Position numbers and translations under genes: made by a program. A stretch of 54,695 bases of DNA from an uncultured virus (IMG/VR IMGVR_UViG_3300024268_000027) (lineage: Duplodnaviria; Heunggongvirae; Uroviricota; Caudoviricetes): the IMG/VR virus record IMGVR_UViG_3300024268_000027; one strand, 5' to 3'. Shown one piece after another: positions 5,551 to 54,693 of this stretch. Every line of letters starts with the position of its first letter. Position 1 is the first letter of the stretch. The notes under the pieces are model-generated. The model was not told where the DNA came from and searched no databases. It saw nothing but the letters and a program-made list of their open reading frames with translations.

Positions 5551-6165
5551 TTAGATTTCTCCACCATCAATTACATTGTAAATACTCAAAGAACTTGTTG
5601 GAATTATGAATGTATCACTTCCTGCTTCTTTCCTGAGAATGTGAAGATGGTAAGAATCCGCACTAATAGTACCAGGATTACTTGGAAGTGTAGTTGCTAC
5701 ACTATCCGAGAATGTCTGAAATACTCCTTGATCGTCAGCATCAACTCTATAAAGCTCCACATATGTGAAATTTGGAGCATCCACACTTCCGTTTAACTGT
5801 TTGAATACTAAACTATTTGATCTTGTTATTCTTGCATAAATGTCGTATGCAGAATCAGTATCAATAGTTCCCTCCAAACAAGATCCAGAAAGTTTCACAT
5901 AGTAGCCACCAATAATAAACTCAATGTATTCTGATTTTCCGTCGGAATTAGATTGAGCAAAGTTATCGGGAATAACAGGTGTAATCATGTAACTACTAGG
6001 TGAGTTTTTTGAGTCATCAGCTGAGTTAGGTAACAATCCTCTGATCCAGGATGTTAAATTTTCTTCAGATAAAACACGATCATATTTACCTTCACGTTCA
6101 AAACTAACAGGGAACATCTTATCTACTGCGGTAGATTCAAGTGTAATTCTTTGAGTTGCCATCAT
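5551..6165 (-). CDS. Hypothetical baseplate-associated protein ending in IDGGEI
   Basis: 204-aa ORF, last gene of the baseplate operon; C-terminal motif shared with fibre proteins. Confidence 0.6.
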   Translation of the reverse strand: MMATQRITLESTAVDKMFPVSFEREGKYDRVLSEENLTSWIRGLLPNSADDSKNSPSSYMITPVIPDNFAQSNSDGKSEYIEFIIGGYYVKLSGSCLEGTIDTDSAYDIYARITRSNSLVFKQLNGSVDAPNFTYVELYRVDADDQGVFQTFSDSVATTLPSNPGTISADSYHLHILRKEAGSDTFIIPTSSLSIYNVIDGGEI

Positions 6166-15536: not shown

Positions 15537-17362
15537 GTTCGATACACTCCTAACAATGAAAGTAATCTTTCAATATCTTTATTTACAAATCCGTCGTGAT
15601 CATACTGATATTCAAGTTTGTCTCTGTGAGTGTCTAGAATTCTCAGAATTGATTCTTGAATTCCTTCGTCCCAAGCACCTTTGATAGCACTCTTGTTTTC
15701 TAAAGTTATTTTGTAATCTTCACAAAGAGGAAGATAATCAAGATGCTTTGTACCATCGGAGTTTGTAGTTCTTGTTAAACTTTCTTGAATATTAGCAATG
15801 TTTGTACTTAGTGTTTCTTGAGGATAGATAACATTGTTAAGTAGATATTCTACAAGTCTGTCTGAGAATGCATACGAAAATCCAGTATTGTACGATAACA
15901 AACTGAGAGGTGCAACATCACTGGCTCTTAATCTAGTAACATCAGCACTCGTTGTTAAGTCATTTGAGATAACTTCCCCTTCGTCATCAAACTTGTTAAA
16001 TATTGTTTTATTTGTATAATCACCTTCTAAAACAACAATTGAAGTTTCAACATTTTTTGGAAGTTGAATGATCATGTAGAGATATTTCTGGCGTTGATAC
16101 AACTCTCTCTTAACTGTTTCACTTAACTTTGCATCTTGACTGAATACAACATCAGCAAGTGGAATAGAGAATGTAAATGGTGATGTAAAATTACAATTTC
16201 TTTTTATAGCTATACTGTGATACAAGTACTCAGAATAAGTTGACTTCATGTTAGTTCTATTCTGATGCGTAGTCTCATCAGTACTTAACTTGTTTATATG
16301 AATCATTCCATTATCATATAATACACCAGCCATCATAACATCTGAATCACATGAAAAAGCGACGGTATAAGTAGTGTCAAATAAAACTGGGACCGCAACA
16401 ACTCTATAATCCGCACTTGCGTCCTCAACAAAGAATTTCATCAATTCTTGTTTTACTTTATGACCAACATACAGGTCAGGAGAACAAGAAATAAGTCCTA
16501 CCTCATAGGGATCACGATCAAGTTTCCATACTAAGTTACCACCACAAGTATCATCATCAATTTCTTGTAGAGTATCCATAACAGGAGGTGTGGCATCGGT
16601 ATAATCAAAAGTGATACGGACCGAGTTTAGACGATCATTGCCATCTTTAACAATGGCTTTCCACTCGTCTGAAGACCCCACATAAAAAACATCCAGAAGA
16701 TTTGTACAACCTAGAAACGCTCCAATACCAATTGAAGTAACTGTTTTAGGAATAACAATTGAAACTAATCCTTTACAGTTAAAGAATGCATTACTTCCGA
16801 TGCTTGTTACACCATCATCTATGAATACATTCTTAATGTAGTCTTTTTCGGACCATGGGGAGGGGTCTACAGTTGTATAGTTTTTCATTGGACTATCAAT
16901 TATACTAGTGTCCTCACGACTTATTTGAACAGTGCCAGGAGCAAATGCTTGGATAACATCATCCTCAGGAGTTAGCATCTCCTCTTGAGTGAATTTAAGA
17001 TAAACATCATCAAGCTCTTTACTGTTATAACAGTTATAATATGGCATCAGATCAATGGAATATTTATCTCTGAAGTATCTTAGATAATAGCCAAGATTTT
17101 TATGAGTTTCTTCATCATACCAAGACACATTTGATATGAAATTTCTCATCAAACATTGCTCAGTATGATATCTAACTTGAGCAGTTGAACCAAACTTTCC
17201 TGATTGTAAGCACTCAACAATGTTGTCGTTAAAGTAGTAGTTACAACCTGCTACTAAGTTAGAACCCTCCCTGATTGTTTGCAAAGAAGGCACGTATTCA
17301 GTTGCAAGTAAGTGCTTTATGAATCGAGCAATCAACGTTTGCTCATGAAATTTTTGAAACAT
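15533..17362 (-). CDS. Virion-associated protein with inserted BspA-type LRR module
   Basis: IDDGVTSIGSNAFFNCKGLVSIVIPKTVTSIGIGAFLGCTNL (LRR_5 repeats) at about aa 176-225 in otherwise unrecognised sequence. Confidence 0.65.
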   Translation of the reverse strand: MFQKFHEQTLIARFIKHLLATEYVPSLQTIREGSNLVAGCNYYFNDNIVECLQSGKFGSTAQVRYHTEQCLMRNFISNVSWYDEETHKNLGYYLRYFRDKYSIDLMPYYNCYNSKELDDVYLKFTQEEMLTPEDDVIQAFAPGTVQISREDTSIIDSPMKNYTTVDPSPWSEKDYIKNVFIDDGVTSIGSNAFFNCKGLVSIVIPKTVTSIGIGAFLGCTNLLDVFYVGSSDEWKAIVKDGNDRLNSVRITFDYTDATPPVMDTLQEIDDDTCGGNLVWKLDRDPYEVGLISCSPDLYVGHKVKQELMKFFVEDASADYRVVAVPVLFDTTYTVAFSCDSDVMMAGVLYDNGMIHINKLSTDETTHQNRTNMKSTYSEYLYHSIAIKRNCNFTSPFTFSIPLADVVFSQDAKLSETVKRELYQRQKYLYMIIQLPKNVETSIVVLEGDYTNKTIFNKFDDEGEVISNDLTTSADVTRLRASDVAPLSLLSYNTGFSYAFSDRLVEYLLNNVIYPQETLSTNIANIQESLTRTTNSDGTKHLDYLPLCEDYKITLENKSAIKGAWDEGIQESILRILDTHRDKLEYQYDHDGFVNKDIERLLSLLGVYRT

Positions 17363-22439: not shown

Positions 22440-23933
22440 TTAGTTATCTTCTGTTTCATCGTCAGAATCTTCCAGATCATCAAGTGAAATCTGATTTGGA
22501 TCTTCCCCTGGCTTGAATCTATATTCGTTGCCCTTCTTGAACTGATTCTTTGTTCGTGCATGAACATTAGCTCTATCGAGAGTATCAGTATCAGTTTCAA
22601 GCTCGTCGCTATGGAACCCATCAATTTCAATCTGCTCAGGCTCAGTATATGCAGTTTGATAGATTGCAGGATAAATTACTTTCTGATACAATCTTTCATA
22701 ATGTTTTTCCATGTAATTAACATAATTGAAGATTGTAGATGCAACCTTTAATAACCAACTTGTATTTGACAAGACAAGTAGTACATGTTTGCAACCTTCC
22801 CCTAAAGTATCATCTGGGTTAGTTATATTTGCGGGCCTTGTCTCAGGATCACCACTACTTGTTTTCTTCTTTGTTTGCCAATATGCAAATCTATACTGAG
22901 CATCAGGGCAAGAACAATGAATATAAACATCATCCCTGTTAAATCCGGTAATCAATGCTCTTGTTACAGCTTTCAAACAGAATTCTTGTTTCTCTAACTG
23001 GTCGTGAAGTAATTCAAGAAAACCTCCAAAACTAATCTTAACTGTGTATGTATCAGTTTCACCTTTAACTTGTACATCAACAGTTAAAATATCTTGTTTG
23101 AAGAGCTTATTCATATCAATACTGTTGTATTGTTTAACACTATTTGCAACTCTCGATTTAACACGACGCTTAAATCTTTGAAATCCTTTGTCGGTCCGCT
23201 TACTTTTTGCAAGAAGAGAGCTTCTGGAATCCTCATGTAACTGAAGCTTCTCCAATGTCAGCTCTCTTGATCGTGCAGATTTGTATGCATCCTTTGCAGC
23301 ATCTAACAAACCAACATTACGAATTTCTTTGAATACAAGGTTTCCTGTACTATACTCCCCTTCTGTGTCAAGAGAGACTTTACGTAACATATACAACTGA
23401 TCAATAACATTTGTAATGTTATCTGAGTTACCAGATTGAATTGCACTCTCAAATGTGTTTTTCCAAGCTTGAAAATCTTCTTCAAAATCAACTTGAGGAA
23501 TGTTCGTTAATCTTTTTGGAAACTTTATCCAAGAATCATTGTAGAGAGAGTATATACCGTTCGATACTGCAGATGATCTAATATCTTCAACATACAGCTC
23601 AATATCAACATCTCTAATCTTGATGTCATAATCCATATTGAACTTTGCTTTTACAGCATTGTATGCAGCTTGCAACAACTCTTTCGGTGCATCAATCAAC
23701 TCAAAATTTGAAATAATATGAACATCGAGATCCGAATACTTAGTGTAATTGTAAGATGCATTACTTCCAACAAGATGCACATCAACAATATTTAACGGGA
23801 GCTCACATGTTGAAATAAACTGTTCAATGATTTCAAGTACACGTAACTTTACGTCATCTCTCAACTTGTTATTTTCAGACCATAATTTTGGATTCAAAGT
23901 ATCATGAACTTCAAAATATTCTTTTAAGATCAT
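22440..23933 (-). CDS. Pol-beta-superfamily nucleotidyltransferase fused to a SWIM zinc-finger domain
   Basis: LVGSNASYNYTKYSDLDVHII (GS...DxD) and IELYVED; C-terminal half CSCPD...CKH. Confidence 0.8.
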   Translation of the reverse strand: MILKEYFEVHDTLNPKLWSENNKLRDDVKLRVLEIIEQFISTCELPLNIVDVHLVGSNASYNYTKYSDLDVHIISNFELIDAPKELLQAAYNAVKAKFNMDYDIKIRDVDIELYVEDIRSSAVSNGIYSLYNDSWIKFPKRLTNIPQVDFEEDFQAWKNTFESAIQSGNSDNITNVIDQLYMLRKVSLDTEGEYSTGNLVFKEIRNVGLLDAAKDAYKSARSRELTLEKLQLHEDSRSSLLAKSKRTDKGFQRFKRRVKSRVANSVKQYNSIDMNKLFKQDILTVDVQVKGETDTYTVKISFGGFLELLHDQLEKQEFCLKAVTRALITGFNRDDVYIHCSCPDAQYRFAYWQTKKKTSSGDPETRPANITNPDDTLGEGCKHVLLVLSNTSWLLKVASTIFNYVNYMEKHYERLYQKVIYPAIYQTAYTEPEQIEIDGFHSDELETDTDTLDRANVHARTKNQFKKGNEYRFKPGEDPNQISLDDLEDSDDETEDN

Positions 23934-41216: not shown

Positions 41217-41498
41217 TCAAGTTGTTTTCAATTTTATCTTTAATGTTCCTGTTGTAGAATCAAAACTTGTTGTAAGTAGTTTTGGTTCAATCTGCTCAAT
41301 TGCATTATTCAGCTCAGCGAATCTTGCATCATTTCCTGCAATTGAATCTTTCCATTCAGGCAGCTTTGTTTGAAGTTCTGTCCAAGCCTGCATATTATCA
41401 TAAAGATTATCAATGGCTCGATCCATCTTGTTCAAATTTTCAGCACTAAGTGGAGTTATGTTATTTTCCCAGTTTATAGGATCATATCCATTTGCCAT
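41217..41498 (-). CDS. Small virion protein with fibre/baseplate attachment-like N-terminus
   Basis: WENNITPLSAENLNKMDRAI motif typical of phage fibre/RBP N-termini, then coiled coil. Confidence 0.6.
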   Translation of the reverse strand: MANGYDPINWENNITPLSAENLNKMDRAIDNLYDNMQAWTELQTKLPEWKDSIAGNDARFAELNNAIEQIEPKLLTTSFDSTTGTLKIKLKTT

Positions 41499-41510: not shown

Positions 41511-41795
41511 TTAATAATCTTTGATATTTCCTGCATTCAAGTAAACAACATCGTCATTTAAGGATCCAAAGAACTTAGCTGCAAATGCATCTATTGTTGT
41601 TTCATGAACAAAAGGAAGATTCTTAACATCTGTTAATCCATCTCCTACTTTGAATCTTGAATAAGAATAAGTTGTGTCTGGATCATAAACAATAATCTCA
41701 CCAGCCCTCGGAATGAAATTAAATGTTCTATTCCAATTTGCTTCTATATCATGAATGTTTACTAATCTAGCAAAAAGTGTGTTGTTATTAGCCAA
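41511..41795 (-). CDS. Minimal Mtd_N-like domain protein (fibre adaptor)
   Basis: NW...FIPRAGEIIVY...RFKVGDG...LPF; C-terminal YLNAGNI. Confidence 0.7.
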   Translation of the reverse strand: MANNNTLFARLVNIHDIEANWNRTFNFIPRAGEIIVYDPDTTYSYSRFKVGDGLTDVKNLPFVHETTIDAFAAKFFGSLNDDVVYLNAGNIKDY

Positions 41796-42504
41796 TGTGT
41801 TGCTCCTTTGCCAGTTGTCTCAACTCAGGCGTCATAGGAAGATCCTCTAGAGATATTCCGTAGAACACTTCATTTATCTGATCACGATTGTACATGTTGT
41901 AAACACAATGTTTGAGAAGATTAAAGTATGTTGTGTGATATTTTCTATGAGAATCAGCAGATTTAATAAGTTTCAGTATATCTGTTGATCTATAAAGCTC
42001 GGAAACCTTTCCTGTTTCATGATACAGAACAGCTAAACTTCCTGATTGAATTTCCTTTTCGAGAAGCTGCAAATTCAACTGATCTTCAAGTGTCAATCTA
42101 AAATGATGTGCTACATTATCTGAAAATAACACACTGACGCCGTTTTCAATAGCATTCTTACAAGCTAAGGACAGCTCGTTGATCTTGTTGTTTCTTGCAT
42201 CAACAATCAATGTTGTTTCGGCATCAATAGAATGCTTACCATGAAGCAGAGTACTTAATCGTTCAAACTCTGCCTCGGTTACTGGTATAAGTTTTACAAC
42301 TTTATTTGGAAGCACTTGAGGGAGTTTTGCTCCCTCAAGTGTATAAACTGTTTTACCAGTTGAACTATATATTCCATGAGCACTCGTTTTATCTGTTAAA
42401 ACAAATTTCTTTGACTTATTGAGCCAACGAACATATTTAACAGTTTCAAGTAAGTCAACAACTATTCCATCTGTAACTACTTTATACATGTACATACTCC
42501 TCAT
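41788..42504 (-). CDS. Tail fibre assembly-like protein (DUF4376-like C-terminal domain)
   Basis: ARNNKINELSLACKNAIENG...FRLTLEDQLNL...YHTTYFNLLK; directly follows the giant fibre gene. Confidence 0.6.
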   Translation of the reverse strand: MRSMYMYKVVTDGIVVDLLETVKYVRWLNKSKKFVLTDKTSAHGIYSSTGKTVYTLEGAKLPQVLPNKVVKLIPVTEAEFERLSTLLHGKHSIDAETTLIVDARNNKINELSLACKNAIENGVSVLFSDNVAHHFRLTLEDQLNLQLLEKEIQSGSLAVLYHETGKVSELYRSTDILKLIKSADSHRKYHTTYFNLLKHCVYNMYNRDQINEVFYGISLEDLPMTPELRQLAKEQHIG

Positions 42505-45500
42505 GAATTATACTTGATAGTTGCATTTGTAGCTCCCCAAGGTGCTCCAACAACTTTGTTTTCTTCCCAAGGAACAATGATTTCCGTCAAAGCAGCACAA
42601 CTTGCAAAGGCGTCATCAGAAATTGTTGGAAGATCTTCAACATTACGGAAGTCAACTGTTGTTAACTTTTCACAACTAGAGAATGCTTTAGCTCCAATGT
42701 TTGTCAACTTAGACGGCATTGTAAGAGTTTCTGTAACTTTGTTATATGAGAATGCATTCGTTCCGATCGAAGTAACTGAATCAGGAAGATTGATATCTAA
42801 GTTATAACAAGAGTAGAATGCTTGAGCACGAATGTTTGTTACATTACCACGGAAAGCAATAGATGTCAAGTTAGTGCACTCGTAGAAGCACTCACTTGGA
42901 ATTTCACTTACGGTTGAAGGAACTACAACAGACATCAGATTTGTACACCCTTTGAATGCTGATGAATCAAAAGAAGTTACAGATTCAGGAATAATACTTG
43001 TTTTACATCCTTGAATCAGTTGCTTACTAACTTTATCAATCAAACAGTTATCAATAGATACGTACTGAGCATTGTTACTATCAACAATGATTGTTTCCAG
43101 TTCAGGACAACTTGCAAACAAACTAGATCCAATAGAGGATACCGTACTAGGAATTGTTACTTTTTTAAGTCTCTTCCATTCTACAAATACTGAATCACCT
43201 AAAGTTGTTAGACCTTCGGGAAGTACCAGCTCAGTTATCTTAGAATTGTTACGGAATGCGTAACTTTTTATCTTCTTGATAGAGCTTGGAAGCTCAAGTT
43301 TTTCAAGAGACACACGAGCAAACGCATATTCACCGATTTCCGCACAAACAGGGGTGTCTTCAAACTCAATTCTTATAACAGTATTCTCATTAGTATTTCC
43401 TTGAGAGAACATTGAAGCAGGAATTACTTCAACTTTGTTTCCAATTCTAACAACGAATCCCTTACTTGAAACACAACCATTGAAAGGACCTTGCGAGATA
43501 TAACCGTTATATGTTCCTGCAGTTGCTTCAACTGCATTGTAGTTAACTTTATCAAGAGTTGTACAATTATAGAATGCTCTCGATCCAATATAGTTAACAC
43601 TTGTTGGAATATCAATTTCTGATAACTTTGTACAATCACTGAATGTGTTTGCAGAAATTGTTTGTAATGTATTCGGAAGATCAACAAGCTCCACAACTGA
43701 CTGATTGAATCCCGCGACTGAAGTCGTACTGTAACTCGCACTCTCAACTGTAAATGTTTCAGGAACTTTAACAAGAGGGTGAACAGCATTGTAAGCTGTA
43801 ATACTTAACGTCTTGTTTGTTGAATCAACTGACTTATCAAAGTCCGCCAGTCCTAGTGTATGCCAACCACCTTCTTCGACAATCTGGAATTGAGCATAAC
43901 ATTTCAATGGACCAGTAATATTAACAGGCTCTGGATACCAAGATCTAAAATCATAGAGTTCAGGGTATGCAGTATCTAATTTTTCTGGATCTTCACCAGG
44001 ATATGCTGCATCACCACCATACGGAGTTGAAACAGTTGCAAGAAGAATGTTGTCGTTATAGAAATCAACATCGTACTGCTTAACGGTTTTTACAAATGCA
44101 ACATAAACAGTTCTATCAGCTCTTATATTGAGAAGAGCATCAGGATCAGGATCTCCATCAAGGCTTCTTGACCATCCGCCCCAAGTATAAGTATACTGTT
44201 CGTTTCCAGTTCTTGTTGGAGTAGGAATTCTACCAGCAGTTATAGGACAAGTTCCTGTTCCGCCAACATTGTTAGAACAAGTAATTTCTTGTACTTCATA
44301 TGTTCCACCTGCAAGATCTTTCAATGTTAATTTTGCAGTTAGAGTTCCGAATGAGATTTCGAGATATGGGTAGATGCTATTTATTTCAGCCATTTCTTCA
44401 CCAGTAAGTGTTTCAATATAACACTTACCTGTAAGATATGCATGGTCTGTATTAACATTGAGCTTGTCGCTACCCTTAACGGAATACAGCGACTTCAAGA
44501 AAGTAACATCGGGAACTGTCCAATCCACATCAGTCAATCTGACACGATCAACCGTCCAGTTACCCTCATCATCTCTACAGTTCTCAAGTAACCGACGAGT
44601 ATCAAGACCTGGACAGTTTTCAATAAATAGCTGTTTAATCTTTGACCAATCGTCAATCTTCAAGTTAGGAACAGGATGTTCTTCAGATGTCTCGTCAGTA
44701 AGATATATCTGATTCTTAATAGTTAAAGATGTTAGTGTACTTGGGGCATGTAGAACTCTTAAGTAACCTGAATCAGGCAACTGAATATTCTGTAAGTTTG
44801 TTCCTTCTGCATAGATTTCTTCGATGTTAGGACAGTTTGAAACATCAAGTGTTAACTGAGGAGTGCCGTTTCCGTGATCCAGTCCGAGACCAGTACAGTT
44901 TGTAACATCAATCTTTTTCAAGAGCTTGTTACTACCGATACTTAATTCACGGAAATTATCATTTTTGTAACCGCTCGTGTGATTACCAATAATCAGATCA
45001 GTTAATTTCTTGCAAGAGGAAACATTTATAACACCACAATACAGAGGAGATAGATCTCCAAGTGAAGATATCTCACTAGCACCATAGATACCGGTTTCTG
45101 TATCGTTGAATATTTCTTTCGGATTTGGAGGAGAGAATTTATGTGACTCTCCAGCCATAAGTTTTTGACTCTGGAATGTACCATTAGCCTTGTACTTGAC
45201 TCCTGCGTACATTGAGGAGAATGTTTTTACTGTAATACTTGGATCCGGAGTAACAACAAGCGGATCTCCGAGAACTTCAATGTTTGTACTAACTCCATTG
45301 ATATGCCAAATCTTATCGACAATTTCTGGAGCAATTATTGCGTTATCTTCATCGAAAGTAACAGCTAATCCAGTATCTACATCTTCAGTTCCGTTGTTAA
45401 TCAACCAGTTACTTGTGATTTCAATTGTACCGTCATCATTCTTTGTTGATGTATACTTAGGAGTGTTACCTCCAACGACTTGTGGTGTGTAGATACGAAG

Positions 45501-48500
45501 GAACGCATAATCTGATGGATAGTCACCACAGTTCCACTTACTATCACAGTACATGATTCTGTTTTCAACAAAGTACTTGAAATGATGCTCAGCTGATCCT
45601 TTAACTTGATACAAGTTTGCTGTATCAACGCCTTTTTCAGGATCTGCATTTTCAGGACGAGCCATTGTAATGTACTTGTATTCGGCATCCTCATTGTAGA
45701 GAGAAGCACTCCATTGTTCAGCGCCTTGAGTGATGAATCTATCTACAAGTTTATCATATGTTATCTTCTTGTCACTACGCAATGATGCGTACATTGCTGC
45801 AATCCTTTGTGGGAAGCATACTCTAAAGTTGTTCCACAAGATGCTGTTTTGACCATTGTAAACATTGGAAGTACCAATCTTATCTGTATCCTCGTGATAG
45901 TAATCAAATACACGAGCACCTTCGTTATTGATGCCAAAAGAAGTATCATTATCGTACAGATATGGATACCAACGACCTTGACCATTTGTTTCCCAGTATG
46001 TTAAGAACATATTCTTTGCTCTCTGGTCAGTCATCAACGCAAAGAATGTGAATACATAGTACACAGTTGAATAGTGCATATTGAAATAGTTTTCAAATTC
46101 GTATTCAAACTTAGCTAATCTATATTCTTTATTGTCCTTGTAATATGTTTTTCCACCATAGATAACTGGTTCGGGAAGATCAGCAGCGTTGGTAAAATCA
46201 ATATCAGTAACGCCACCTAGAACAACATTACCATCGTCATCCTGTGTTTCAACCGGAGCAACAGTTGCAGTACTTAGCACCCAATCGTGCATTTCTTTGA
46301 ATCTTGCAATAGTATCTCTATTCAACTCCGCAAGTTCACTCAGTTCTGCTTCAGAAAGAGCCTTACCATCCTGAGCAAGAGCTTTCTGCTTTTCACGAAG
46401 TTCTTCAATTCTGTCCCAACAGTTTACTTGTTCTTCTTCGCCTTCATCATTGATTACAGTTGTAGTTTTTCCTGTATAACGAGGCTCAAAATCATCCTTC
46501 CAATCGTCAGGAATTTCTCCCAAGAAGTTACAAGAGTTAGAAGTGTTGTTGCAGAATTCCCAACACTCTGTATCAAATGCAGAACTAAAACCGAATGCAT
46601 TTTCAGCGCCCTTATCAAAGTTGAAGTTTGCTTTTGAAGAGAATACCGGTTCTGAATCTGCGGTTTCTTGCTCAAATATAACACAAGGAAATCCAGCTAT
46701 TGTAGTTCTAACACGAGGTTCTATTGCTTGAGGTGGAATCTTTTCAGAATAAAGTGTTTCTGCAAAGTTTGCAACTTGAGTATTGTGAGTACCTGTTGCT
46801 TCTGCATAGTCAACTTTTAAGCAGAATACTTTTGCAGGAACTTGATCGACCATATGTTGATGTTCAACATTATGTTTTGTCTTCCAGTTTTTACGAACAT
46901 AGAACTGAGAAGAAGTACCCTGTACGTCAATTTCCTTGAGTAGCTCAGTAAAGTTTAATTCCGGATGATCTGGATGTATAAACACCATTGTAACAGAATT
47001 CTTTTTCTTATCACCCTTAAATGTTGGCATAGATCCAATAAACAAAACTGTAGGAATCTTTGTCTTAACTTTATCGTAACTAACCTTACCGTCTTCGAAG
47101 ATATCGTTATCTTCGAACAGTTCTTGTTTCAGTACAGGAAGTGTTGTGTCTGCAATGTAGTTCTGAACAATTTCATCCGAAGATAATTCATAATCATAAA
47201 CACGGATGTTATAGATATCAATACCACAAAGTTCAGATCCAATATGGATTGTTTTTGCTGTAGTTTGCTCAAAGTTACCATTTTCAGGATATTGAGCAAT
47301 GTTTGATAAGATGCCGTCAATATAAGTACAGATGAATCTAGTTCCATTGTTAACCATACCGACAGTGAAGCTGACTCTAATGTGTTCATTTTCACGATAT
47401 GTGCAGTTAACTTTTGCTCCAGTGCCGGATAATGTAGCTGTATCAGCTGTTACTTGTAATCCGATGTTGCCATCTGTACAATCAATAACAACAGCTTCTC
47501 TATCATTAACATCTCTAATAGCAAACTCAAGCTCAATGGTTTTACCCATTTCACGGAAGTCTCTATCAAACAATTTGTAGTCAATATCGATATTAGCGTC
47601 ACCATTTAGACGCAAACAAGTATCGAGATTTTCATCGACAACCCAACCATTACTTACCCAGTTAAAGTTGTTAAAAGTTGTAGTTATATCGTTGTAAGTC
47701 CAATGAGCAGGACTTGGACGCTCATCATTAGATCTACCTACTGCGGAAAGCTGTAATGCTAAACTTGCAGTTACTGGATCAATATCAATATCTGATTTTT
47801 CGACAAGTATAGTGTGAGTTTTAGAAACAGTATACTTTTCATCGGTATAGGTGATTTTGAATCTAACTGTTCCTGTAGGATATTGACGAACATTCCAATA
47901 ATGTAGTGAACGATCTACATTCAGCTCAATAGGTGTTCCGTAAGCTTTCTCCTCACCACTTATCATCTCATAGATGCTCAATGTGATATCAGCTGAATCT
48001 TTTCCAGGAACATACACACAATAAGGAATAGAAATAATGTTGCCCTGTTTTATCTCAGTTGTTGGATAAACAGACGCAATTAAAGGAGTCTCTACTCCCG
48101 CTTCAACACACATGATGTCATAAACAAGATGATTACTTGTTATTGTTTGATCATTCAGAGTGGCTGTTATGTAAACATCAAGTGAGTGAGATCCGTGAGA
48201 TTGTAGAGGTAGTTCTTGAGTCATTGATCTACCAGAGGCAGAAACATTTTTATATGCAACTTCCTTACCGTCAATCAAGAAATGAACAGTCTTATCAATT
48301 TCACCAGTAGGAACATACTGGAAGATAATTGCATCATCAAAAGGACGACTTGAATCAAATGTCGAGGAGATTCTAAGATCAATAACAGTACATGTATAAG
48401 CTAGACTCCTACTATTTCCGTATATATCACTACATGTTACACGAACAGTATTTGATCCAGCCTTCAAAAGATCAGAAACATCGATAACTTGTGCACCCTG

Positions 48501-49166
48501 TTTCAGATTCAATGTTTTAACAACTTTACCTGCAACAGAAATAGAACAAGCAAAATCTCCAGTGGGTGCTCCGTCTTCCTCAGATGTAAATGTAAACTTA
48601 AGAACAACAGGAGAGCCATTTGCAGCTGATAGAGACGATGCTCCGTTGTTATTGCTGATCTTCAGAATAACATTACTTGAGTCTCCACCACCTGAGCCAC
48701 CTTTAACTTCAACTGGATCTGAAACAATAACACCACCAGCTGTTAGATACAACAGATTGTTTTCATATAACAACCCATCAACAGCAGCCGCATCAATAAA
48801 TTGTTTCAGACTTGCTTTCAAATCAGCTGTTTCTTTACCAACAGCTCTGATATGTTCACCAGCTGTATCATATTCCGCCTCATCGTAACCAACACGCATA
48901 TCGCGTATTTCTAACTCTGTTACTGCGGTATCTGATCCAGATCCAACAATATTGGAAACCTGATTTCTCAGTGTGTTGATTGCGCTTTCAAGCTCACCAT
49001 CGATATAAGGAAGATCTTCAAACTTACTTTGACCGTTACCTAACTTAAATCTTTTCTTACCGTTGTCACAGTATTCAACAATGAGCTCGTTCTTTGCAGG
49101 AATAACTGTTGATTTGAGCCAGTCAGAAGTGGTTCCGTGTCTTAGTTGTGTAATAAATTTTGCCAC
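42501..49166 (-). CDS. Giant multidomain fibre/adhesin: Mtd_N, Ig-like, LamG-like, CotH-kinase-like, LRR, Listeria-Bacteroides-type repeats, BspA LRR
   Basis: N-terminal LRHGT..DW...RFKLGNG...LPY; IYNIRVYDYELS (LamG); QGTSSQFYVRKNWK, DQRAKNMFL, YDNDTSFG (CotH-like); YTYTWGGWS; more than 10 IPxSVTxIGxxAFxxC repeats. Confidence 0.8.
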   Translation of the reverse strand: MAKFITQLRHGTTSDWLKSTVIPAKNELIVEYCDNGKKRFKLGNGQSKFEDLPYIDGELESAINTLRNQVSNIVGSGSDTAVTELEIRDMRVGYDEAEYDTAGEHIRAVGKETADLKASLKQFIDAAAVDGLLYENNLLYLTAGGVIVSDPVEVKGGSGGGDSSNVILKISNNNGASSLSAANGSPVVLKFTFTSEEDGAPTGDFACSISVAGKVVKTLNLKQGAQVIDVSDLLKAGSNTVRVTCSDIYGNSRSLAYTCTVIDLRISSTFDSSRPFDDAIIFQYVPTGEIDKTVHFLIDGKEVAYKNVSASGRSMTQELPLQSHGSHSLDVYITATLNDQTITSNHLVYDIMCVEAGVETPLIASVYPTTEIKQGNIISIPYCVYVPGKDSADITLSIYEMISGEEKAYGTPIELNVDRSLHYWNVRQYPTGTVRFKITYTDEKYTVSKTHTILVEKSDIDIDPVTASLALQLSAVGRSNDERPSPAHWTYNDITTTFNNFNWVSNGWVVDENLDTCLRLNGDANIDIDYKLFDRDFREMGKTIELEFAIRDVNDREAVVIDCTDGNIGLQVTADTATLSGTGAKVNCTYRENEHIRVSFTVGMVNNGTRFICTYIDGILSNIAQYPENGNFEQTTAKTIHIGSELCGIDIYNIRVYDYELSSDEIVQNYIADTTLPVLKQELFEDNDIFEDGKVSYDKVKTKIPTVLFIGSMPTFKGDKKKNSVTMVFIHPDHPELNFTELLKEIDVQGTSSQFYVRKNWKTKHNVEHQHMVDQVPAKVFCLKVDYAEATGTHNTQVANFAETLYSEKIPPQAIEPRVRTTIAGFPCVIFEQETADSEPVFSSKANFNFDKGAENAFGFSSAFDTECWEFCNNTSNSCNFLGEIPDDWKDDFEPRYTGKTTTVINDEGEEEQVNCWDRIEELREKQKALAQDGKALSEAELSELAELNRDTIARFKEMHDWVLSTATVAPVETQDDDGNVVLGGVTDIDFTNAADLPEPVIYGGKTYYKDNKEYRLAKFEYEFENYFNMHYSTVYYVFTFFALMTDQRAKNMFLTYWETNGQGRWYPYLYDNDTSFGINNEGARVFDYYHEDTDKIGTSNVYNGQNSILWNNFRVCFPQRIAAMYASLRSDKKITYDKLVDRFITQGAEQWSASLYNEDAEYKYITMARPENADPEKGVDTANLYQVKGSAEHHFKYFVENRIMYCDSKWNCGDYPSDYAFLRIYTPQVVGGNTPKYTSTKNDDGTIEITSNWLINNGTEDVDTGLAVTFDEDNAIIAPEIVDKIWHINGVSTNIEVLGDPLVVTPDPSITVKTFSSMYAGVKYKANGTFQSQKLMAGESHKFSPPNPKEIFNDTETGIYGASEISSLGDLSPLYCGVINVSSCKKLTDLIIGNHTSGYKNDNFRELSIGSNKLLKKIDVTNCTGLGLDHGNGTPQLTLDVSNCPNIEEIYAEGTNLQNIQLPDSGYLRVLHAPSTLTSLTIKNQIYLTDETSEEHPVPNLKIDDWSKIKQLFIENCPGLDTRRLLENCRDDEGNWTVDRVRLTDVDWTVPDVTFLKSLYSVKGSDKLNVNTDHAYLTGKCYIETLTGEEMAEINSIYPYLEISFGTLTAKLTLKDLAGGTYEVQEITCSNNVGGTGTCPITAGRIPTPTRTGNEQYTYTWGGWSRSLDGDPDPDALLNIRADRTVYVAFVKTVKQYDVDFYNDNILLATVSTPYGGDAAYPGEDPEKLDTAYPELYDFRSWYPEPVNITGPLKCYAQFQIVEEGGWHTLGLADFDKSVDSTNKTLSITAYNAVHPLVKVPETFTVESASYSTTSVAGFNQSVVELVDLPNTLQTISANTFSDCTKLSEIDIPTSVNYIGSRAFYNCTTLDKVNYNAVEATAGTYNGYISQGPFNGCVSSKGFVVRIGNKVEVIPASMFSQGNTNENTVIRIEFEDTPVCAEIGEYAFARVSLEKLELPSSIKKIKSYAFRNNSKITELVLPEGLTTLGDSVFVEWKRLKKVTIPSTVSSIGSSLFASCPELETIIVDSNNAQYVSIDNCLIDKVSKQLIQGCKTSIIPESVTSFDSSAFKGCTNLMSVVVPSTVSEIPSECFYECTNLTSIAFRGNVTNIRAQAFYSCYNLDINLPDSVTSIGTNAFSYNKVTETLTMPSKLTNIGAKAFSSCEKLTTVDFRNVEDLPTISDDAFASCAALTEIIVPWEENKVVGAPWGATNATIKYNS

Positions 49167-49201
49167 GTCTAATCACACTCCTCAATAAAGTTTCTTATAC
49201 T

Positions 49202-49212
49202 GTTATATACAA
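49202..49212 (-). promoter_or_regulatory. Motif TTGTATATAAC upstream of the giant fibre gene
   Basis: Intergenic, just downstream of a terminator hairpin; TTGACT at 49232-49227 upstream. Confidence 0.6.
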
Positions 49213-49230
49213 TTGTATCAACAGCAAGTC

Positions 49231-49267
49231 AATAAAAATAGAGCTACATATCAATGTAGCTCTATTT
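49231..49267 (-). terminator. Intrinsic terminator
   Basis: 14-bp inverted repeat AAATAGAGCTACAT/ATGTAGCTCTATTT, then TTATT on the minus strand. Confidence 0.8.
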
Positions 49268-49285
49268 AACTTATGTAATAACAAA

Positions 49286-50164
49286 TTACCAACTAGAAGT
49301 TGCAGTTCCGCAATCAAGAATTAGAACTGTTGCTAGTTCAGATCCATCTCCTAACATGTTATATAGTGCGTTAACTCTATCAGTTTGAGTTCCAATGTTA
49401 GTTTTGTTTGTTTGTGAATCTGTATAAGCTGTATCCCAGTTAGAAACTTTTGTTGAAGTGATGCCATCAATAACACCCTTGTTAGAGTGCGTGTGAATAT
49501 TATCTGCAACAATAGAGTCTAAAAGGGTCTTGTTTGTATGAGTATGACTTGCAGACTGAAGAGCATCAATCTCATCTTCTGCAGTTGCTCTCCATGTTTC
49601 GAGAGCAGTAATACGCTTTGCTTCAGCTGTAACATCGCCCAGCTCAATCCAACCAGTTCCATCGTACACATACTCAACATCACGAGCATCAGTATCTGTT
49701 ACTTTGTAGATTACAATATCACCTCTAGCGGGTGTTATAGCTTCACCACCAACGGTAACCGTTCCTGTTGCAGGATCAGTTGTAGAAATGCCGATAAAAT
49801 GCATTCCGCCAGTAACAGCATTCTGCAAAGCTAAGATTGCTTCCTCAGCTTTATCAAGATCATCAGTTAATGTGATGATTGCTTGGTTACCAGTAATATC
49901 AACATCATTGATGGATGCAGATTTTGCCCAATCATAAACATCAGATGCAGGGGCGGATAACCAGTTAAGTCCACTAAATGCAGTAGAACCATCGCCGATT
50001 TTCATCAAGTAAGTTGAGCTAGAAGAGCCATCACTTTCAGTTGTAGCAAATTCTACAAGAGCAATCTCACCCTTCTTAAGTGTAATGTTACTTGAAGTCC
50101 ACTCAGCATATGTACCATGTTTATTAACAATTCTTGTATTAAGAGTTTTTTCAATAACTGACAT
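49286..50164 (-). CDS. Fibre protein with Mtd_N-like N-terminus
   Basis: KHGTYAEW...LKKGEIALVE...MKIGDG; HTHTNK/HTHSNK repeats; C-terminal ILDCGTA. Confidence 0.75.
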   Translation of the reverse strand: MSVIEKTLNTRIVNKHGTYAEWTSSNITLKKGEIALVEFATTESDGSSSSTYLMKIGDGSTAFSGLNWLSAPASDVYDWAKSASINDVDITGNQAIITLTDDLDKAEEAILALQNAVTGGMHFIGISTTDPATGTVTVGGEAITPARGDIVIYKVTDTDARDVEYVYDGTGWIELGDVTAEAKRITALETWRATAEDEIDALQSASHTHTNKTLLDSIVADNIHTHSNKGVIDGITSTKVSNWDTAYTDSQTNKTNIGTQTDRVNALYNMLGDGSELATVLILDCGTATSSW

Positions 50165-50180
50165 ATTTGTACCTCGTAGA

Positions 50181-50228
50181 AACTATCTCTCTATAAGATT
50201 ATATACAAGATCTTATAGAGAGATAGTT
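50181..50228. promoter_or_regulatory. Perfect 19-bp inverted repeat with the TTGTATATAAT motif spanning its 10-nt loop
   Basis: AACTATCTCTCTATAAGAT/ATCTTATAGAGAGATAGTT; minus-strand loop CTTGTATATA. Confidence 0.75.
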
Positions 50229-50247
50229 GTAGATTTAAGTGATGGAA

Positions 50248-52182
50248 TTAAGCATTGCCACCGTTAAGAATAAGAACAGTATTCTCATCCTGAACCAACT
50301 TAGTAACATTTAAGCTATGAACTTCCATTGCTTTATCTTCGTTGATAGAGACCATGTTCATAGCTGCAGTTCCCTTAACAACACCGTAAACTGCATTACT
50401 TGCACTAGCAATCTCAACAATCTTACTTGCGTTAGGAGCGAGTGTTTCACCAGCAACAGAAATGCCTTCAATGACGTTAACCTGAGCACCTTCTGCAATT
50501 CCAGCTAACTTCTCTTCCTCAGCAGCAGACATTAAGCCAGCAGCCGTTTCACGGTTAGCAGACATCCAATCAGCTAAACCAGTAACATTTGTTGCAGCTA
50601 GAGTGCCATCGGCATTCAGCTTAGCAAGTTTAGCAAGATCGGTGCTTGAGATAAGCTCTTTGCCATCTTCCTTAGATACTTTACCATTGATGTTGTCTTG
50701 TAGTGCTTGTAAAGAACCGGCTAAGCCTGTGACTTTGTTCTGAGCAATCTCCTTGATGCTGAGCTCTCTGTCAGTGACAGTAAACTCACCTTCATCTGCA
50801 GAATGAATAACATTCTTCTCAGCTTCATCCCAAGCAGCAACTTTCTCAGAAGTAATTTCATCAAGAACATCTTTGTTGCTGTGAGTGTGAGCTTTGTCTT
50901 CAAGTCCAGTAACTTTGTCACTAATGCCTGAAACAGTTTCGTTAGTCGCATCAAGTGCAGTCTGATCAGCTTTCTTTGCAACATTAGCAATAGTTTCGTA
51001 CTTAGCATCATACTTAGCATCTAAACCATTGATGGTTTGTTGCAGAGCTGTAATCTTACCGTCAAGTGTGCTATCAGCAGCTGCATAAGCGTCTACTACA
51101 CTGTTGATAGCAGTTTGAAGATCGGAGTCAGTTGCATAAGGAGTAAGGTCAATTGAAGTTTCACCGATAAGAGTAGGAGTCTTAGTTCCTTCTGCATCAG
51201 TTAAAACAATATACTGCTCGTAAACATCAGCACCGGTTACATCCTCTTTCTTTAACAGATAAAGGGTTGTAGTGTCGGTCATCTCAGTAATACTAGTAAC
51301 TACTCGAGCACTGAAATGAGCTTGTTTACCAATTTCCTGAGCAACATATGTATGTACTTCATCTTTTGTATATCTGTTGCTGATTGCATCCTCAGCTGCG
51401 GACATATCATCCTCTAAAGTTGCAACTTTAGAAACTAAGCCAGGAACAGCAGCTACATAGTCGCCATCTTCCTCACTGCCTGTAGCAGGAGTTCCATTCA
51501 AGGTCTGCTCAACAGCAGTAACACGATTACCGAGAGCAGTATCTGCATTTGCAAGCTCTACATCTTTTGCTTGAAGAGCTGTAATAGCCTCAGCATTTGC
51601 GTTAGCTGCATCCTGAGCAGCACCAACAGCTTCCTCGAGAACTTCATCCTTATCCTCAAGGTTTGTTACACGCTCAGTTAAACCGGTTAAGTTAGCGTTC
51701 AATCCATCAACAGTAATGTTAGAAGGGACTGACCACACTAACTCACCGTTAACTAACTGAGGAACATAAGTTCCGGAAGTCTTACCCTCAATGCCGTGAA
51801 CAGTAATCTTACCTGTTGCATCAACATCGATAGTTTTGTCATCTCCAACAGGAGTGATACCAACTTCTTTGTAGCTGAATGCATACTTACCTTGAGCAAC
51901 ATCAACGTCCTCTTCAGCACGCTCTTCCAGAATGTAAGCAGTTACCTTACGAGTTTCATTGTCAACAAGAGCAAGATACTGACCAGCGTAGGGATAAGGA
52001 ACAACCTTCTCCTCTGCATTCTTGAACCAGTACTCAGATACGTCAGTTGTATAAGCACCTTTACTTACATAGTACTTAAGATCATTTTCACTTGTGAACA
52101 CTTGAGAAATATCAAGTGCGCCATAAGCCTGTCTGTTCAGGTTAACAGGAAGTGATGCAAATTTCTGATATTCGTAACTCAT
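50248..52182 (-). CDS. Coiled-coil tail/head fibre protein
   Basis: Heptad repeats, HTHSNK, GLMSAAEEEKLAGIAEGAQVNVIE and YGVVKG fibre motifs; C-terminal ILNGGNA. Confidence 0.75.
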   Translation of the reverse strand: MSYEYQKFASLPVNLNRQAYGALDISQVFTSENDLKYYVSKGAYTTDVSEYWFKNAEEKVVPYPYAGQYLALVDNETRKVTAYILEERAEEDVDVAQGKYAFSYKEVGITPVGDDKTIDVDATGKITVHGIEGKTSGTYVPQLVNGELVWSVPSNITVDGLNANLTGLTERVTNLEDKDEVLEEAVGAAQDAANANAEAITALQAKDVELANADTALGNRVTAVEQTLNGTPATGSEEDGDYVAAVPGLVSKVATLEDDMSAAEDAISNRYTKDEVHTYVAQEIGKQAHFSARVVTSITEMTDTTTLYLLKKEDVTGADVYEQYIVLTDAEGTKTPTLIGETSIDLTPYATDSDLQTAINSVVDAYAAADSTLDGKITALQQTINGLDAKYDAKYETIANVAKKADQTALDATNETVSGISDKVTGLEDKAHTHSNKDVLDEITSEKVAAWDEAEKNVIHSADEGEFTVTDRELSIKEIAQNKVTGLAGSLQALQDNINGKVSKEDGKELISSTDLAKLAKLNADGTLAATNVTGLADWMSANRETAAGLMSAAEEEKLAGIAEGAQVNVIEGISVAGETLAPNASKIVEIASASNAVYGVVKGTAAMNMVSINEDKAMEVHSLNVTKLVQDENTVLILNGGNA

Positions 52183-52210
52183 AATATTACTTTATTCTCC
52201 TTCTCTGTTA

Positions 52211-53341
52211 TTAACCGATTGTGAAATCGTAATGTGTAGCTGCAAGACCCTCAGCTTGAACAAGAGTCCAAGTTTTGTATTCAACAGCTGTTGCACCATT
52301 TGCACCTTCAACTTCAACAGTATCAGAAACAAACTTACCAAAAGCACTTAAGCCCATTCCATCAACGTCGATGACTTCAGTCAGTGCTTTGTTACAAGCA
52401 GTAGGAATAGCAACTACAATACGTGTTGTGCCCGCAGGAATTTCTACACCTGCTTGAGATGCTGCGTCTTTGCCCCATCCCATATGAGTTGCACCACGAA
52501 TGAATGCAGAGGAGATAGGAGTTGTATGATCCTTACCGATGTACATAAACCACTTACGATAACCAGTAACAGTTAAAGATCCTGTTGCAGTTAAATCTTG
52601 AGCACCAATTTTCAAGCTTTCAACTTTAGTTCCCACATTGTTGACAGGAGTTCTAGGAGAACCATCATGAGAAGCACTTGCACTGAAATTGAAGGTTCTT
52701 GCTGTATCGGTAAACTTACGATCAGCATCAGGTAACTCTGTTGTAGTTAAACTTAGTGTAACATCACTGTTTGAGTTACTTCCGGTTGCTGTTTTAGCGG
52801 GATTTTCAGAACTGATAGAAATTGAGGAGAACACAATTCCTGTACCAGTATCAGTATACTTTGTAGTACCATCAGCACCGTAAGAACCATACTGATAAGA
52901 ACCAGTTCCAACTTTTGCAGTGGCTGTTGGTAATGCAAACAACTCACCAACTTCACCGGTCTGATTTCCGCTAGTTGAAATAGTTAAAGTACGAGCTCCA
53001 ACTGTAGGATTAGTAGGAACAGCAAATGCATCAAGAAGAACTTGCTGAGCTGTTTTACCTTCAGCAGGAACAACAACAGAGCCAGAACTGCCTGGCTTGT
53101 ATCTACCAAACTGCATTGTTAACTGCAGATCGCTGTCAAATTGTGCAATCTGCTGAAGCTCTGAATAATTGTAAGTATAAGGGAGCTCACTCCACTTTTT
53201 CTCACCATCACCAATCTTCAGTTTGTTGTCAGAAGCACCAACTTCAACACCGAACTCGCCAGCGCCCAAAACAGGATCTTTTGCAGTCCAGTTTTCTGCT
53301 GTATCATTACGGATAAGAATTTGAGTTTTTAATTCTGCCAT
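52211..53341 (-). CDS. Fibre protein with Mtd_N-like N-terminus and beta-rich C-terminal domains; start revised to MAELK
   Basis: IRNDTAENW...VLGAGEFGVE...KLKIGDG...LPY; GAGGA SD before ATG 53341. Confidence 0.75.
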   Translation of the reverse strand: MAELKTQILIRNDTAENWTAKDPVLGAGEFGVEVGASDNKLKIGDGEKKWSELPYTYNYSELQQIAQFDSDLQLTMQFGRYKPGSSGSVVVPAEGKTAQQVLLDAFAVPTNPTVGARTLTISTSGNQTGEVGELFALPTATAKVGTGSYQYGSYGADGTTKYTDTGTGIVFSSISISSENPAKTATGSNSNSDVTLSLTTTELPDADRKFTDTARTFNFSASASHDGSPRTPVNNVGTKVESLKIGAQDLTATGSLTVTGYRKWFMYIGKDHTTPISSAFIRGATHMGWGKDAASQAGVEIPAGTTRIVVAIPTACNKALTEVIDVDGMGLSAFGKFVSDTVEVEGANGATAVEYKTWTLVQAEGLAATHYDFTIG

Positions 53342-53425
53342 AATTGATTGATTTCCTCTCATAAAAATAAATTTATAAACTTACTTTCTGCATCTACAAG
53401 TATATTACTTGATTATCATTCAAAG

Positions 53426-53842
53426 TTATTTTGAAAATGTGGAAGAAGCATCTCCGCCGTTTATGCATTGAATTTCATTCCAGTCTCTGCCAATACAGAT
53501 AAAGTTACCACCTTCGGCATCCCATCTGTAAGCAGCATTTTCCTTAACAACTATATATACAATTCCAACTTGACCTATCTGTGGTAAGTCGAATAGTGTA
53601 CTAACTTGCACTTCTCTTGATGAGGATTCTAGAGCAGTAACACGCTCTTTAAGATCAATGATGTCCTCATCAAAGGAACTACTTGCTTGAATACGCTCAA
53701 GCACAAGATTATTTTGATCATTTTTTATGCACACAAAGACTTCAAGTGTATCAGTACAAATGTACCAGCAACCTTCAATCTTGTTTATATCAGCAATGTT
53801 ATCAATATTTGCTCTTAAACCATACTTAATCTGAAATTGCAC
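53426..53842 (-). CDS. Small fibre-associated adaptor protein
   Basis: GTG start with GAGGT SD; divergent Mtd_N-like start (EGCWYICTDT); LPQIGQVGIVYIV...YRWD; C-terminal INGGDA. Confidence 0.65.
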   Translation of the reverse strand: MQFQIKYGLRANIDNIADINKIEGCWYICTDTLEVFVCIKNDQNNLVLERIQASSSFDEDIIDLKERVTALESSSREVQVSTLFDLPQIGQVGIVYIVVKENAAYRWDAEGGNFICIGRDWNEIQCINGGDASSTFSK

Positions 53843-53856
53843 TTTATTTACCTCTC

Positions 53857-54693
53857 TTAGAATGTTCCATAAGAGATTGAGGACACTGTTGCACCGTCAG
53901 TTATTGCTGCTTCAACCTTTTCATCAACAATCTTTTCTACTTCTTCAGAAGTAATATGTTTAACAGCAGCAATCTGTTCTTGAACAAATTCTTGAGTAGC
54001 CAGGTCCGCAATCTCAGTCTTTGTTGCAAAAGTACCAAGAACACCCTTCTGGCTTGATATAGCATCCGATAACTCTTTCAGAGTATCTAACTCTTCAGGA
54101 GCGCTATCAACAAGTTTTGCAACTGCTTCGTCAACATAACCCTCAGTTGCATAACCTTCAGGAACCCCGGTCAAGTATCCTGCATCATTCTCAAGCTCAC
54201 CTAATCTAGTAGGAACCTGTGGAAGTTCAATTGCTCTTATTTTCTCATCAACATATGCTTCAGAAGCAAGTTCATCTATAGAAGGAATCTTTGCTTCAAC
54301 TTCATGTAGTTCTTCTTTTGTAGCTAAATCAGTTAGATCGACTTCAGGGAGCGTAATCTTACCAATCTCTTCGGCAAGCTCAGATTTAGTTACAAAGTTC
54401 TGAATATCATCGGTAGTTACTACGTCCTCTGGAAGTTCCACCGACAACGAGAGATCTTCAAGCTTCTGTTCAACAAACTCTTTTGTAGCATACTCACCAA
54501 GATCAACACCTGTTAGTGTCTTGATCTCTTCACGAAGTGCAGCAACAGCACTTGCAAGTTCTTCCTTAGTTGCAGAACTTTTTTTACAAGCATCGATGTG
54601 CTCATAGATGTGTGTCTTGTCAGTTGTAAAATTATCTGCTAAAGTTTGAATTCTGTTTTCAAGTTGCTCAAGATCTGCTCGAAACTGAGTTTG
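53857..54693 (-). CDS. Fibre protein with ATKxxV/L repeats (5' end beyond window)
   Basis: Frame open from the window end (QTQFRADLEQLENR...YATKEFV...); LVDSAPEELDTLKELSDAI fibre motif; C-terminal ISYGTF. Confidence 0.75.
   Translation of the reverse strand, partial: QTQFRADLEQLENRIQTLADNFTTDKTHIYEHIDACKKSSATKEELASAVAALREEIKTLTGVDLGEYATKEFVEQKLEDLSLSVELPEDVVTTDDIQNFVTKSELAEEIGKITLPEVDLTDLATKEELHEVEAKIPSIDELASEAYVDEKIRAIELPQVPTRLGELENDAGYLTGVPEGYATEGYVDEAVAKLVDSAPEELDTLKELSDAISSQKGVLGTFATKTEIADLATQEFVQEQIAAVKHITSEEVEKIVDEKVEAAITDGATVSSISYGTF

Follow-up and report, generated by a model that had tools for sequence, protein, structure and literature searches.

The window, a 54,695-nt stretch of the 116.7-kb genome (52% complete) of an uncultured caudovirus, carries a run of fibre-like genes at its right-hand end and the last gene of the tail/baseplate run near its left end (Table 1). 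All ORFs under study lie on the minus strand, at the coordinates that the initial annotation gave. Two short elements recur among their products: an N-terminal Mtd_N/HylP-type cap, the head, and a C-terminal peptide, the tail. Where these proteins sit in the virion, and with which partners, we infer from the evidence below.

Table 1. Heads, tails and the genes that carry or adjoin them.
Feature	Coordinates	Strand	Evidence or content
Head (class 1: HylP-type, with Trp) of the 94-aa ORF 41511-41795, a head+tail adaptor	41610..41795	-	alignment and head profile
Tail YLNAGNI of the 94-aa ORF	41523..41543	-	motif match
238-aa gene adjoining the adhesin	41788..42504	-	PHROG tail-fibre family phrog_1348; no head, no tail
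2221-aa head-only adhesin	42501..49166	-	class-1 head 48987-49166; C-terminal BspA-type LRR_5 repeats
292-aa head+tail adaptor	49286..50164	-	class-1 head 49937-50164; tail ILDCGTA 49301-49321
644-aa tail-only fibre	50248..52182	-	tail ILNGGNA 50251-50271
376-aa head-only protein	52211..53341	-	most canonical class-1 head, 53150-53341
138-aa CINGGDA-tailed protein	53426..53842	-	tail 53447-53467, retained in relatives; N-terminal head unconfirmed
3' part of 314-aa fibre-like gene	53857..54693	-	aromatic-type tail SISYGTF 53860-53880
204-aa last gene of the tail/baseplate run	5551..6165	-	tail VIDGGEI 5554-5574

Automated ORF listing opens the 52211 ORF at 53362; the start at 53341, already chosen by the initial annotation, is the one that fits both P0008, a database protein of 376 aa, and the relative in L014. 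The gene truncated at the window's end encodes 314 aa in a near-identical contig (L013), where the full-length copy is headless and the next gene upstream, of 448 aa, bears a seventh tail; in this phage the tail of the 448-aa gene precedes a headless gene. The 292-aa adaptor lies directly upstream of the 2221-aa adhesin, the predicted terminal subunit, and the adjacency of the 50248 and 49286 genes is retained in related phages. The VIDGGEI tail is conserved in 7 of 8 aligned relatives (40-81% identity), and this conservation, together with gene position, makes the 5551 protein a candidate baseplate anchor. Six database relatives of the 94-aa ORF retain its head and mostly lack its tail, so the adaptor is not conserved as a unit; the next gene (41217-41498) is headless.

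All six tails quoted by the initial annotation are present exactly as given. The strict motif ends 5 of the 137 ORFs of the genome, precisely five of those six, whereas 2000 shuffles yield 0.087 matches on average and never more than 2; SISYGTF does not obey this pattern and looks like the aromatic class described below.

Five heads had been claimed, and four are clear. The N-termini of 41511, 42501, 49286 and 52211 can be aligned on a common pattern (W / [GN]E / K-G-[DN]-G / L), and a profile built from them and their database relatives recovers all four at E 1e-13 or better, a recovery that is not fully independent. In whole-protein searches, Pfam PF18454 matches only two heads (18.3 and 23 bits, below the curated cut-off of 26.3); searched alone, the 64-aa head of 52211 rises above it (27.7 bits), 49286 is below it, and 41511 and 42501, for which Pfam gives no match, are tied to the cap family through profiles. 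A model of the 49286 head (pLDDT 90), compared with 48,161 chains, has its two best matches in HylP (2C3F; Z 5.9, rmsd 2.7 over 52 aligned residues) and Mtd (1YU0; Z 4.7, rmsd 1.7 over 45), with the next at Z 3.2; these Z values are middling, and the modelled head has the fold of the solved caps. The fifth, 'divergent' head, that of 53426, is unconfirmed: its N-terminus matches neither head profile nor Pfam, profile-profile comparison yields E 0.1-0.4, and a neighbour in an Mtd_N cluster of the Atlas (score 0.88) is the one lead. Two more heads lie elsewhere in the genome without a tail gene upstream, C1:21151-21399 (42 bits, above the PF18454 cut-off) and C1:34581-34973; no match to mtd_2nd or to reverse transcriptase, as an Mtd-type diversity-generating retroelement target would lead one to expect, appears among the window proteins scanned.

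The co-occurrence of heads and tails that the initial annotation predicted holds across phage genomes, and in both directions. Across 154 loci other than this one, 56 de-duplicated genes lie immediately upstream of a head, and 15 of them end in the strict motif, compared with 7 of the 832 remaining genes at those loci (p 2e-14); three of the 56 belong to a contig nearly identical to this phage, and the head-selected loci are biased to canonical class-1 heads because a tighter seed alignment was used, the others being too diverse. A looser motif, defined after seeing the data, ends 37/56 and 22/832, respectively, leaving 19 of the 56 without even this form. Starting from the tails, 34 of the 61 de-duplicated cases of IDGG[TNK]A-stop have a head in the following gene, as have 47 of the 75 of IDGGT[FY]-stop; the remaining 27 and 28 tails have no head next door. 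The reversed control motif occurs in 14 stretches, 2 of them in frames of at least 40 aa, and is never followed by a head. Twelve loci of cultured phages hold 15 head genes, of which 11 come after a clear motif, two after a partial one and two after none; a head of ACG-2014d and one of crAssBcn25 lack the motif upstream, and the last tail of L016 is followed by an adhesin that does not carry this head. In natural fusions, 18 of 99 internal heads, spread over 14 proteins, have the motif immediately in front of them, compared with 24 of 1501 control windows.

The pairing extends to well-known genes: T4 gp36, BPP-1 Bbp9 and PblB of Streptococcus pyogenes 315.3 are motif-ended and directly precede gp37, mtd and hylP, respectively. 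Mtd and streptococcal HylP belong to the same sequence family and fold as the heads described here. Two matched classes of plug and cap go beyond the initial annotation. Tails ending in Ala precede Trp-bearing, HylP-type (class-1) heads in 34 cases and gp37-type (class-2) heads in none, whereas for tails ending in Phe or Tyr the counts are 1 and 46 (p 5e-22, with the class-2 profile cross-validated and counts uncorrected for kinship). Plugs outside the search pattern follow suit, with a large terminal residue before 3 of 52 class-1 and 12 of 17 class-2 heads (p 2e-7; likewise uncorrected for kinship), and all 34 class-1 heads compared have the Trp, as against no more than 2 of the 35 in class 2 (again without kinship correction). 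The two caps are homologous (hhalign probability 94, E 1e-7); a sequence search of the PDB found no solved relative of class 2. The counts suggest that Ala-ended plugs prefer Trp-bearing caps and that those ending in Phe or Tyr prefer gp37-type caps, although lineage could explain part of this.

T4 gp36, which ends in D-F-G-Y-Y, and gp37 are among the closest known counterparts. Trimeric gp36 is stated to bind the N-terminal region of gp37, and the available part of that account names no motif or cap family at the joint (PMC3004832); a 2026 cryo-EM preprint, in the part available, offers a map and no PDB code for the distal rod (10.64898/2026.03.06.709160). The first class-1 profiles gave no significant match to gp37 or Mtd, Pfam missed gp37, and only the class-2 profile detected gp37: built without T4 and run on 17 reference proteins, it assigns the gp37 N-terminus to class 2 (E 4e-16), with tblastn giving E 4e-3 to T4T. 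As here, a C-terminal D/N-x-G peptide lies upstream, a homologous cap downstream, and one trimer joins the next, a joining that is predicted for this phage; unlike in T4, the four confirmed heads are of class 1 and the putative joint is repeated several times. Peptide-cap docking would likely account for the long-known gp36-gp37 joint.

The one complex modelled combines three copies of the 50248 tail (as a 34-mer) with three imposed copies of the 49286 head, a trimeric state that we take from known fibres. In three runs it scores ipSAE 0.91-0.92, contacts agree to at least 98%, pLDDT is 92 for the head and at least 81 for the partner. The interface that the initial annotation had called for is thus confidently predicted for one pair, 0.92 against 0.64 for the best of three controls, an unrelated 34-mer on the same head trimer, from which it follows that the cap readily takes a strand in the model; of 157 solved complexes 116 attain the score mark, whereas only 2 of 215 mismatched pairs do, figures that apply only roughly to this task. 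Tail residues 24-34 are predicted to contact head residues 1-18 and 21-22 of neighbouring chains, the tail strand pairing with the first strand of the head. HylP and Mtd were solved as single proteins, with no partner named in the entry titles (PDB 2C3F, 6X3M, 1YU0), so the cap folds without a plug.

These observations are best explained, with a probability of about 0.8, if the C-terminal peptide is a plug and the Mtd_N/HylP-type cap a socket that join fibres end to end. Three peptides of one trimeric fibre would add as β-strands to the first strands of the next trimeric cap, and fibres would be linked head to tail in linear chains. One chain may run from 50248, whose tail is predicted to dock on the head of 49286, and on to the 42501 adhesin, as adjacency suggests; a second may link 53426 to 52211. 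The tails of 5551, 41511, 53857 and the 448-aa gene fall outside these predicted chains. Of the earlier proposal that tails dock into Mtd_N-like heads, the docking is supported by co-occurrence, the fusions and the one confident model, while the 53426 head stays unconfirmed. Of the chained or branched fibres envisaged there, the linear chain is what the gene layout predicts, since no window protein shows more than a single terminal tail and a single head; none matches the gp10-like family.

The tail could instead serve the upstream fibre alone, as a self-contained end cap or as a strand that closes the trimer, and adjoin heads only because fibre genes cluster and move together. Such genes do cluster, and about four in ten tails lack a head gene next door; yet even with controls taken from those very fibre neighbourhoods, the motif is concentrated in genes immediately upstream of a head, the class of the head can be predicted from that of the tail, the fusions place the motif a few residues ahead of the head, and in the model it is the motif that forms the interface while the remainder of the 34-mer stays out of it, all of which makes this explanation improbable. 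Chances slimmer by a shade attach to transient binding of the peptide as a trimerisation aid. Tiny proteins consisting of little beyond head and/or tail (41511, P0127, Hydrus gp2, Popper gp29) would suit such a role, but T4 gp36 and gp37 together make up the mature distal rod, according to the available part of the preprint (10.64898/2026.03.06.709160), and AXL1 gp43 (tail) and gp44 (head) are not among the proteins listed as undetected by virion proteomics, which found most structural proteins, in the portion of that paper at hand (PMC9206674).

How specific the docking would be is a closer question. A general two-class code joining fibres across tailed phages, T4 gp36-gp37, Mtd and HylP included, is put forward tentatively, its chances approaching even; the terminal plug residue and the cap Trp would be a swapped knob and hole, Ala matching caps that have the Trp and Phe or Tyr those that lack it; if true, one phage could run orthogonal fibre chains and swap tips by gene exchange. 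Rather less probable, but a serious contender, is promiscuous docking of any plug in any cap, the classes reflecting only phage lineage or habitat. To judge by neighbour genes, the viruses found in one motif scan are largely of other groups than those found in the second, only lineage L151/L158 carries both matched pairs on one contig, the two head profiles cross-match, and a single complex pair was modelled; against promiscuity stand the near-exclusive split, the terminal-residue bias beyond the search pattern and the distribution of the Trp.

Known systems resemble the proposed plug-and-socket joint in part. In branched Klebsiella receptor-binding proteins (RBPs), as far as the available text of two papers goes (PMC13352976; PMC9700779), a short conserved peptide likewise docks one RBP on another and permits modular exchange. 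There, however, the peptide resides on the added subunit (N-terminal in phiKp24) and a T4gp10-like domain on the carrier gives branching, whereas here the carrier has the C-terminal peptide, the added subunit the N-terminal domain, and a chain results. Fibre subunits of podophages A1002, GP4 and VP1 attach by β-sheet augmentation with an extended peptide, as proposed here, but as dimers along one rope protein rather than trimer to trimer; the available text mentions neither 'DGG' nor 'Mtd' (PMC13730344), and the likeness is one of analogy only. Tail-before-head pairing is not described in the literature passages searched; the joint may be held in supplements of structure papers or in subscription journals. 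The available parts of the crAss001 atlas (PMC10172136), a study of three mycobacteriophage baseplates (PMC13252515), RBPseg (PMC12143355), the ICP2 paper (10.1101/2021.03.08.434494) and the Klebsiella RBP atlas (10.64898/2026.05.12.724579) do not describe the motif.

If correct, plug-and-socket joining would supply the molecular basis on which T4 gp36 holds gp37 and Mtd and HylP reach the virion, would make the order of fibre assembly readable from genome sequence, and would provide laboratory phage work with a small connector by which trimeric proteins can be displayed. Mtd_N, a receptor-specificity domain in the available text of PMC9206674 and here read as an attachment socket, would be a very common, misread domain given a function: the class-1 head is matched by ~8,000 clusters (50% identity), and one spelling of the aromatic plug occurs in ~4,800 viral stretches.

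The full virus record is 116.7 kb long (an estimated 52% complete), and the window is its right-hand 54.7 kb. The window's structural genes, all encoded on the minus strand, are those of a contractile-tailed phage whose capsid, portal and protease are T4-like. The fibre cassette occupies 41511-54693, upstream of the capsid-head genes and ~29 kb from the baseplate run. Four window ORFs, named here by their lower coordinates, align over a common N-terminal domain, the Mtd_N/HylP cap (head, or socket), and short C-terminal motif peptides (tails, or plugs, e.g., ILNGGNA) end several ORFs. These four heads and all six tails of the initial annotation are present; the fifth, "divergent" head that it assigned to 53426 is not confirmed by profiles, this N-terminus having a lead-level Atlas match only. 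The 52211 head scores above the PF18454 cut-off, a profile of head relatives matches the N-termini of streptococcal hyaluronidases in the PDB (E 2e-8 to 2e-12), and the two best structural matches of the 49286 head model are HylP (2C3F, Z 5.9) and Mtd (1YU0, Z 4.7). The same fold search gives low-Z matches to N-terminal parts of Acinetobacter/Klebsiella tailspikes (6EU4, Z 3.2; 7W1C and 7XYC, about 2) and to collagen XV/XVIII trimerisation domains, which may be due to chance.

In its strict form (hydrophobic-[IL]-[DNS]-x-G-x-[AIF]-type), the tail motif ends 5 of the 137 genome ORFs vs 0.087 expected, and all five had been named beforehand. The tail of the baseplate-side 5551 is retained in seven of eight aligned relatives at 40-81% identity (8 of 10 matches used; the self match and one fragment excluded). 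A near-identical contig extends the cassette: there the 53857 gene encodes 314 aa, without a head domain, and a 448-aa gene upstream of it bears a seventh tail. Both in this phage and in a related locus, L014, the 448-aa gene's tail is followed by the N-terminus of this full-length 53857 (…YVDW.GL.YYD…; L013:8541-9485, window 53857-54693), which could be a socket of a third kind, unrelated to the others; in L016, too, a tail is followed by a different N-terminus.

Heads and tails co-occur across phage genomes, as the initial annotation had anticipated. Among 154 loci fetched with head queries, 226 genes lie directly upstream of a head gene, or 56 after removal of near-duplicates, three of them from a near-copy of this phage. 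The strict motif ends 15 of these 56 vs 7 of 832 other genes at those loci (p 2e-14); a relaxed version, drawn up once examples were known, ends 37/56 vs 22/832. In 12 cultured-phage loci, picked for diversity among 60 listed of 412 records, 15 head genes are preceded by a clear motif (11), a partial one (2) or none (2); Arthrobacter phages MellowYellow and Paella have consecutive tail, head-plus-tail and head genes. The motif-before-head order recurs in T4 gp36/gp37, BPP-1 Bbp9/Mtd and S. pyogenes phage 315.3 PblB/HylP, three hand-picked records in addition to that sample. Bbp9 is presumably the tail fibre, and Mtd is located at fibre tips. Heads nearest Mtd (loci L318, L330, L343, L004) tend to come after D-[LYH]-G-x-[IVL] tails like that of Bbp9, possibly a third plug subclass; two come after IDGGTY instead. 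Of the 99 internal heads in 157 head-bearing database proteins, 18 (in 14 proteins) have the motif at most ~22 residues in front of them vs 24 of 1501 control windows, which is how a fused plug and socket would be expected to look in sequence. Five proteins (P0009, P0012, P0014, P0016, P0049) consist of up to 6-7 tandem heads and could act as multi-socket hubs.

Heads fall into class 1 (HylP-type) and class 2 (T4 gp37-type), which are homologous (hhalign probability 94); PF18454 matches 11 of 30 class-2 candidates at E < 0.05, the T4 gp37 N-terminus is matched by a class-2 profile from which T4 was left out, and tblastn with a single class-2 head finds T4T gp37. In a scan of viral contigs, gene ends spelling IDGG[TNK]A gave 125 of ~290 estimated stretches, and those spelling IDGGT[FY] gave 126 from 2 of 64 parts (~4,800 estimated); 61/135 and 75/129 matches, respectively, were kept once short frames, contig ends and near-duplicates were dropped. 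Behind Ala-ended tails, the next gene carries a class-1 head 34 times, a class-2 head never and no head of either class 27 times; behind Phe/Tyr-ended tails, the counts are 1, 46 and 28 (p 5e-22 for the split; cross-validation of the class-2 profile was between halves, and counts are uncorrected for kinship). A reversed control motif returned 14 stretches, only two in frames of at least 40 aa and none followed by a head. Tails other than those searched for end in a large residue before 3/52 class-1 vs 12/17 class-2 heads, again kinship-uncorrected and with 17 class-1 and 14 class-2 pairs lacking the motif. Trp is present in 34/34 class-1 vs at most 2/35 class-2 heads, likewise uncorrected. Both matched pairs share a contig in only one lineage (L151, L158).

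The trimer-trimer docking that had been proposed is confidently predicted for one pair: three copies of the 49286 head (residues 1-76) with three of the 34-residue C-terminus of 50248 score 0.91-0.92 vs 0.64, 0.33 and 0.00 for controls, with at least 98% contact agreement between runs and partner pLDDT of at least 81. The score mark is met by 116/157 solved vs 2/215 mismatched pairs, a calibration that suits this job only roughly. Contacts are defined best between tail residues 27-31 (L-I-L-N-G) and residues 6-15 of two adjacent head chains and, in the model, read as strand addition. The control at 0.64 means that a strand is readily accepted by the modelled cap. Neither sequence comparison nor a representative fold search found a solved complex of this pair.

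Docking of the tail peptide into the cap is judged probable (roughly 0.8); given docking, class specificity of the pairing is slightly favoured and would be set by the cap Trp and the last plug residue. Fibres would be linked end to end, 49286 receiving 50248 and the 2221-aa LRR adhesin in turn receiving 49286, with a putative 53426-52211 joint and tail-only proteins as roots on the virion. Some observations do not fit so tidy a chain. The L016 chain ends with an adhesin without this head. Roughly 40% of tails are not directly followed by a head gene; in this phage, 5551, 41511 and the 448-aa gene lack an adjoining socket. Neither of two heads outside the window, one of each class, has a tail gene upstream; the first could be a free cap, decoy or remnant, and the second might be the socket that takes SISYGTF, the aromatic-type tail. 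Branching, also suggested initially, appears nowhere in the results.

Head domains of the full record (G000:C1) outside the window
Feature	Coordinates	Remarks
Stand-alone class-1 head, 82 aa	G000:C1:21151-21399	Above PF18454 cut-off; among non-structural genes
Class-2 (gp37-type) head, 130-aa protein	G000:C1:34581-34973	E 7e-8

In Klebsiella phages, a peptide is known to dock one receptor-binding protein onto another, with the peptide belonging to the added subunit (PMC13352976; PMC9700779); in A1002, fibre dimers attach to a rope protein by strand augmentation (PMC13730344); and T4 gp36 binds the gp37 N-terminal region (PMC3004832). Neither this C-terminal motif nor Mtd_N as a socket is described in the accessible text of the literature searched. 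The pairing is judged real, widespread and apparently undescribed, a probable connector behind known joints.

Midway along the LRR adhesin (42501-49166), residues 1018-1107 have a weak CotH-kinase-like match (E 0.067). A second BspA-type LRR_5 protein (15533-17362) lies within the baseplate run, and a 497-aa protein with a nucleotidyltransferase domain (22440-23933; PF01909 at cut-off) adjoins the tube gene within the tail module.
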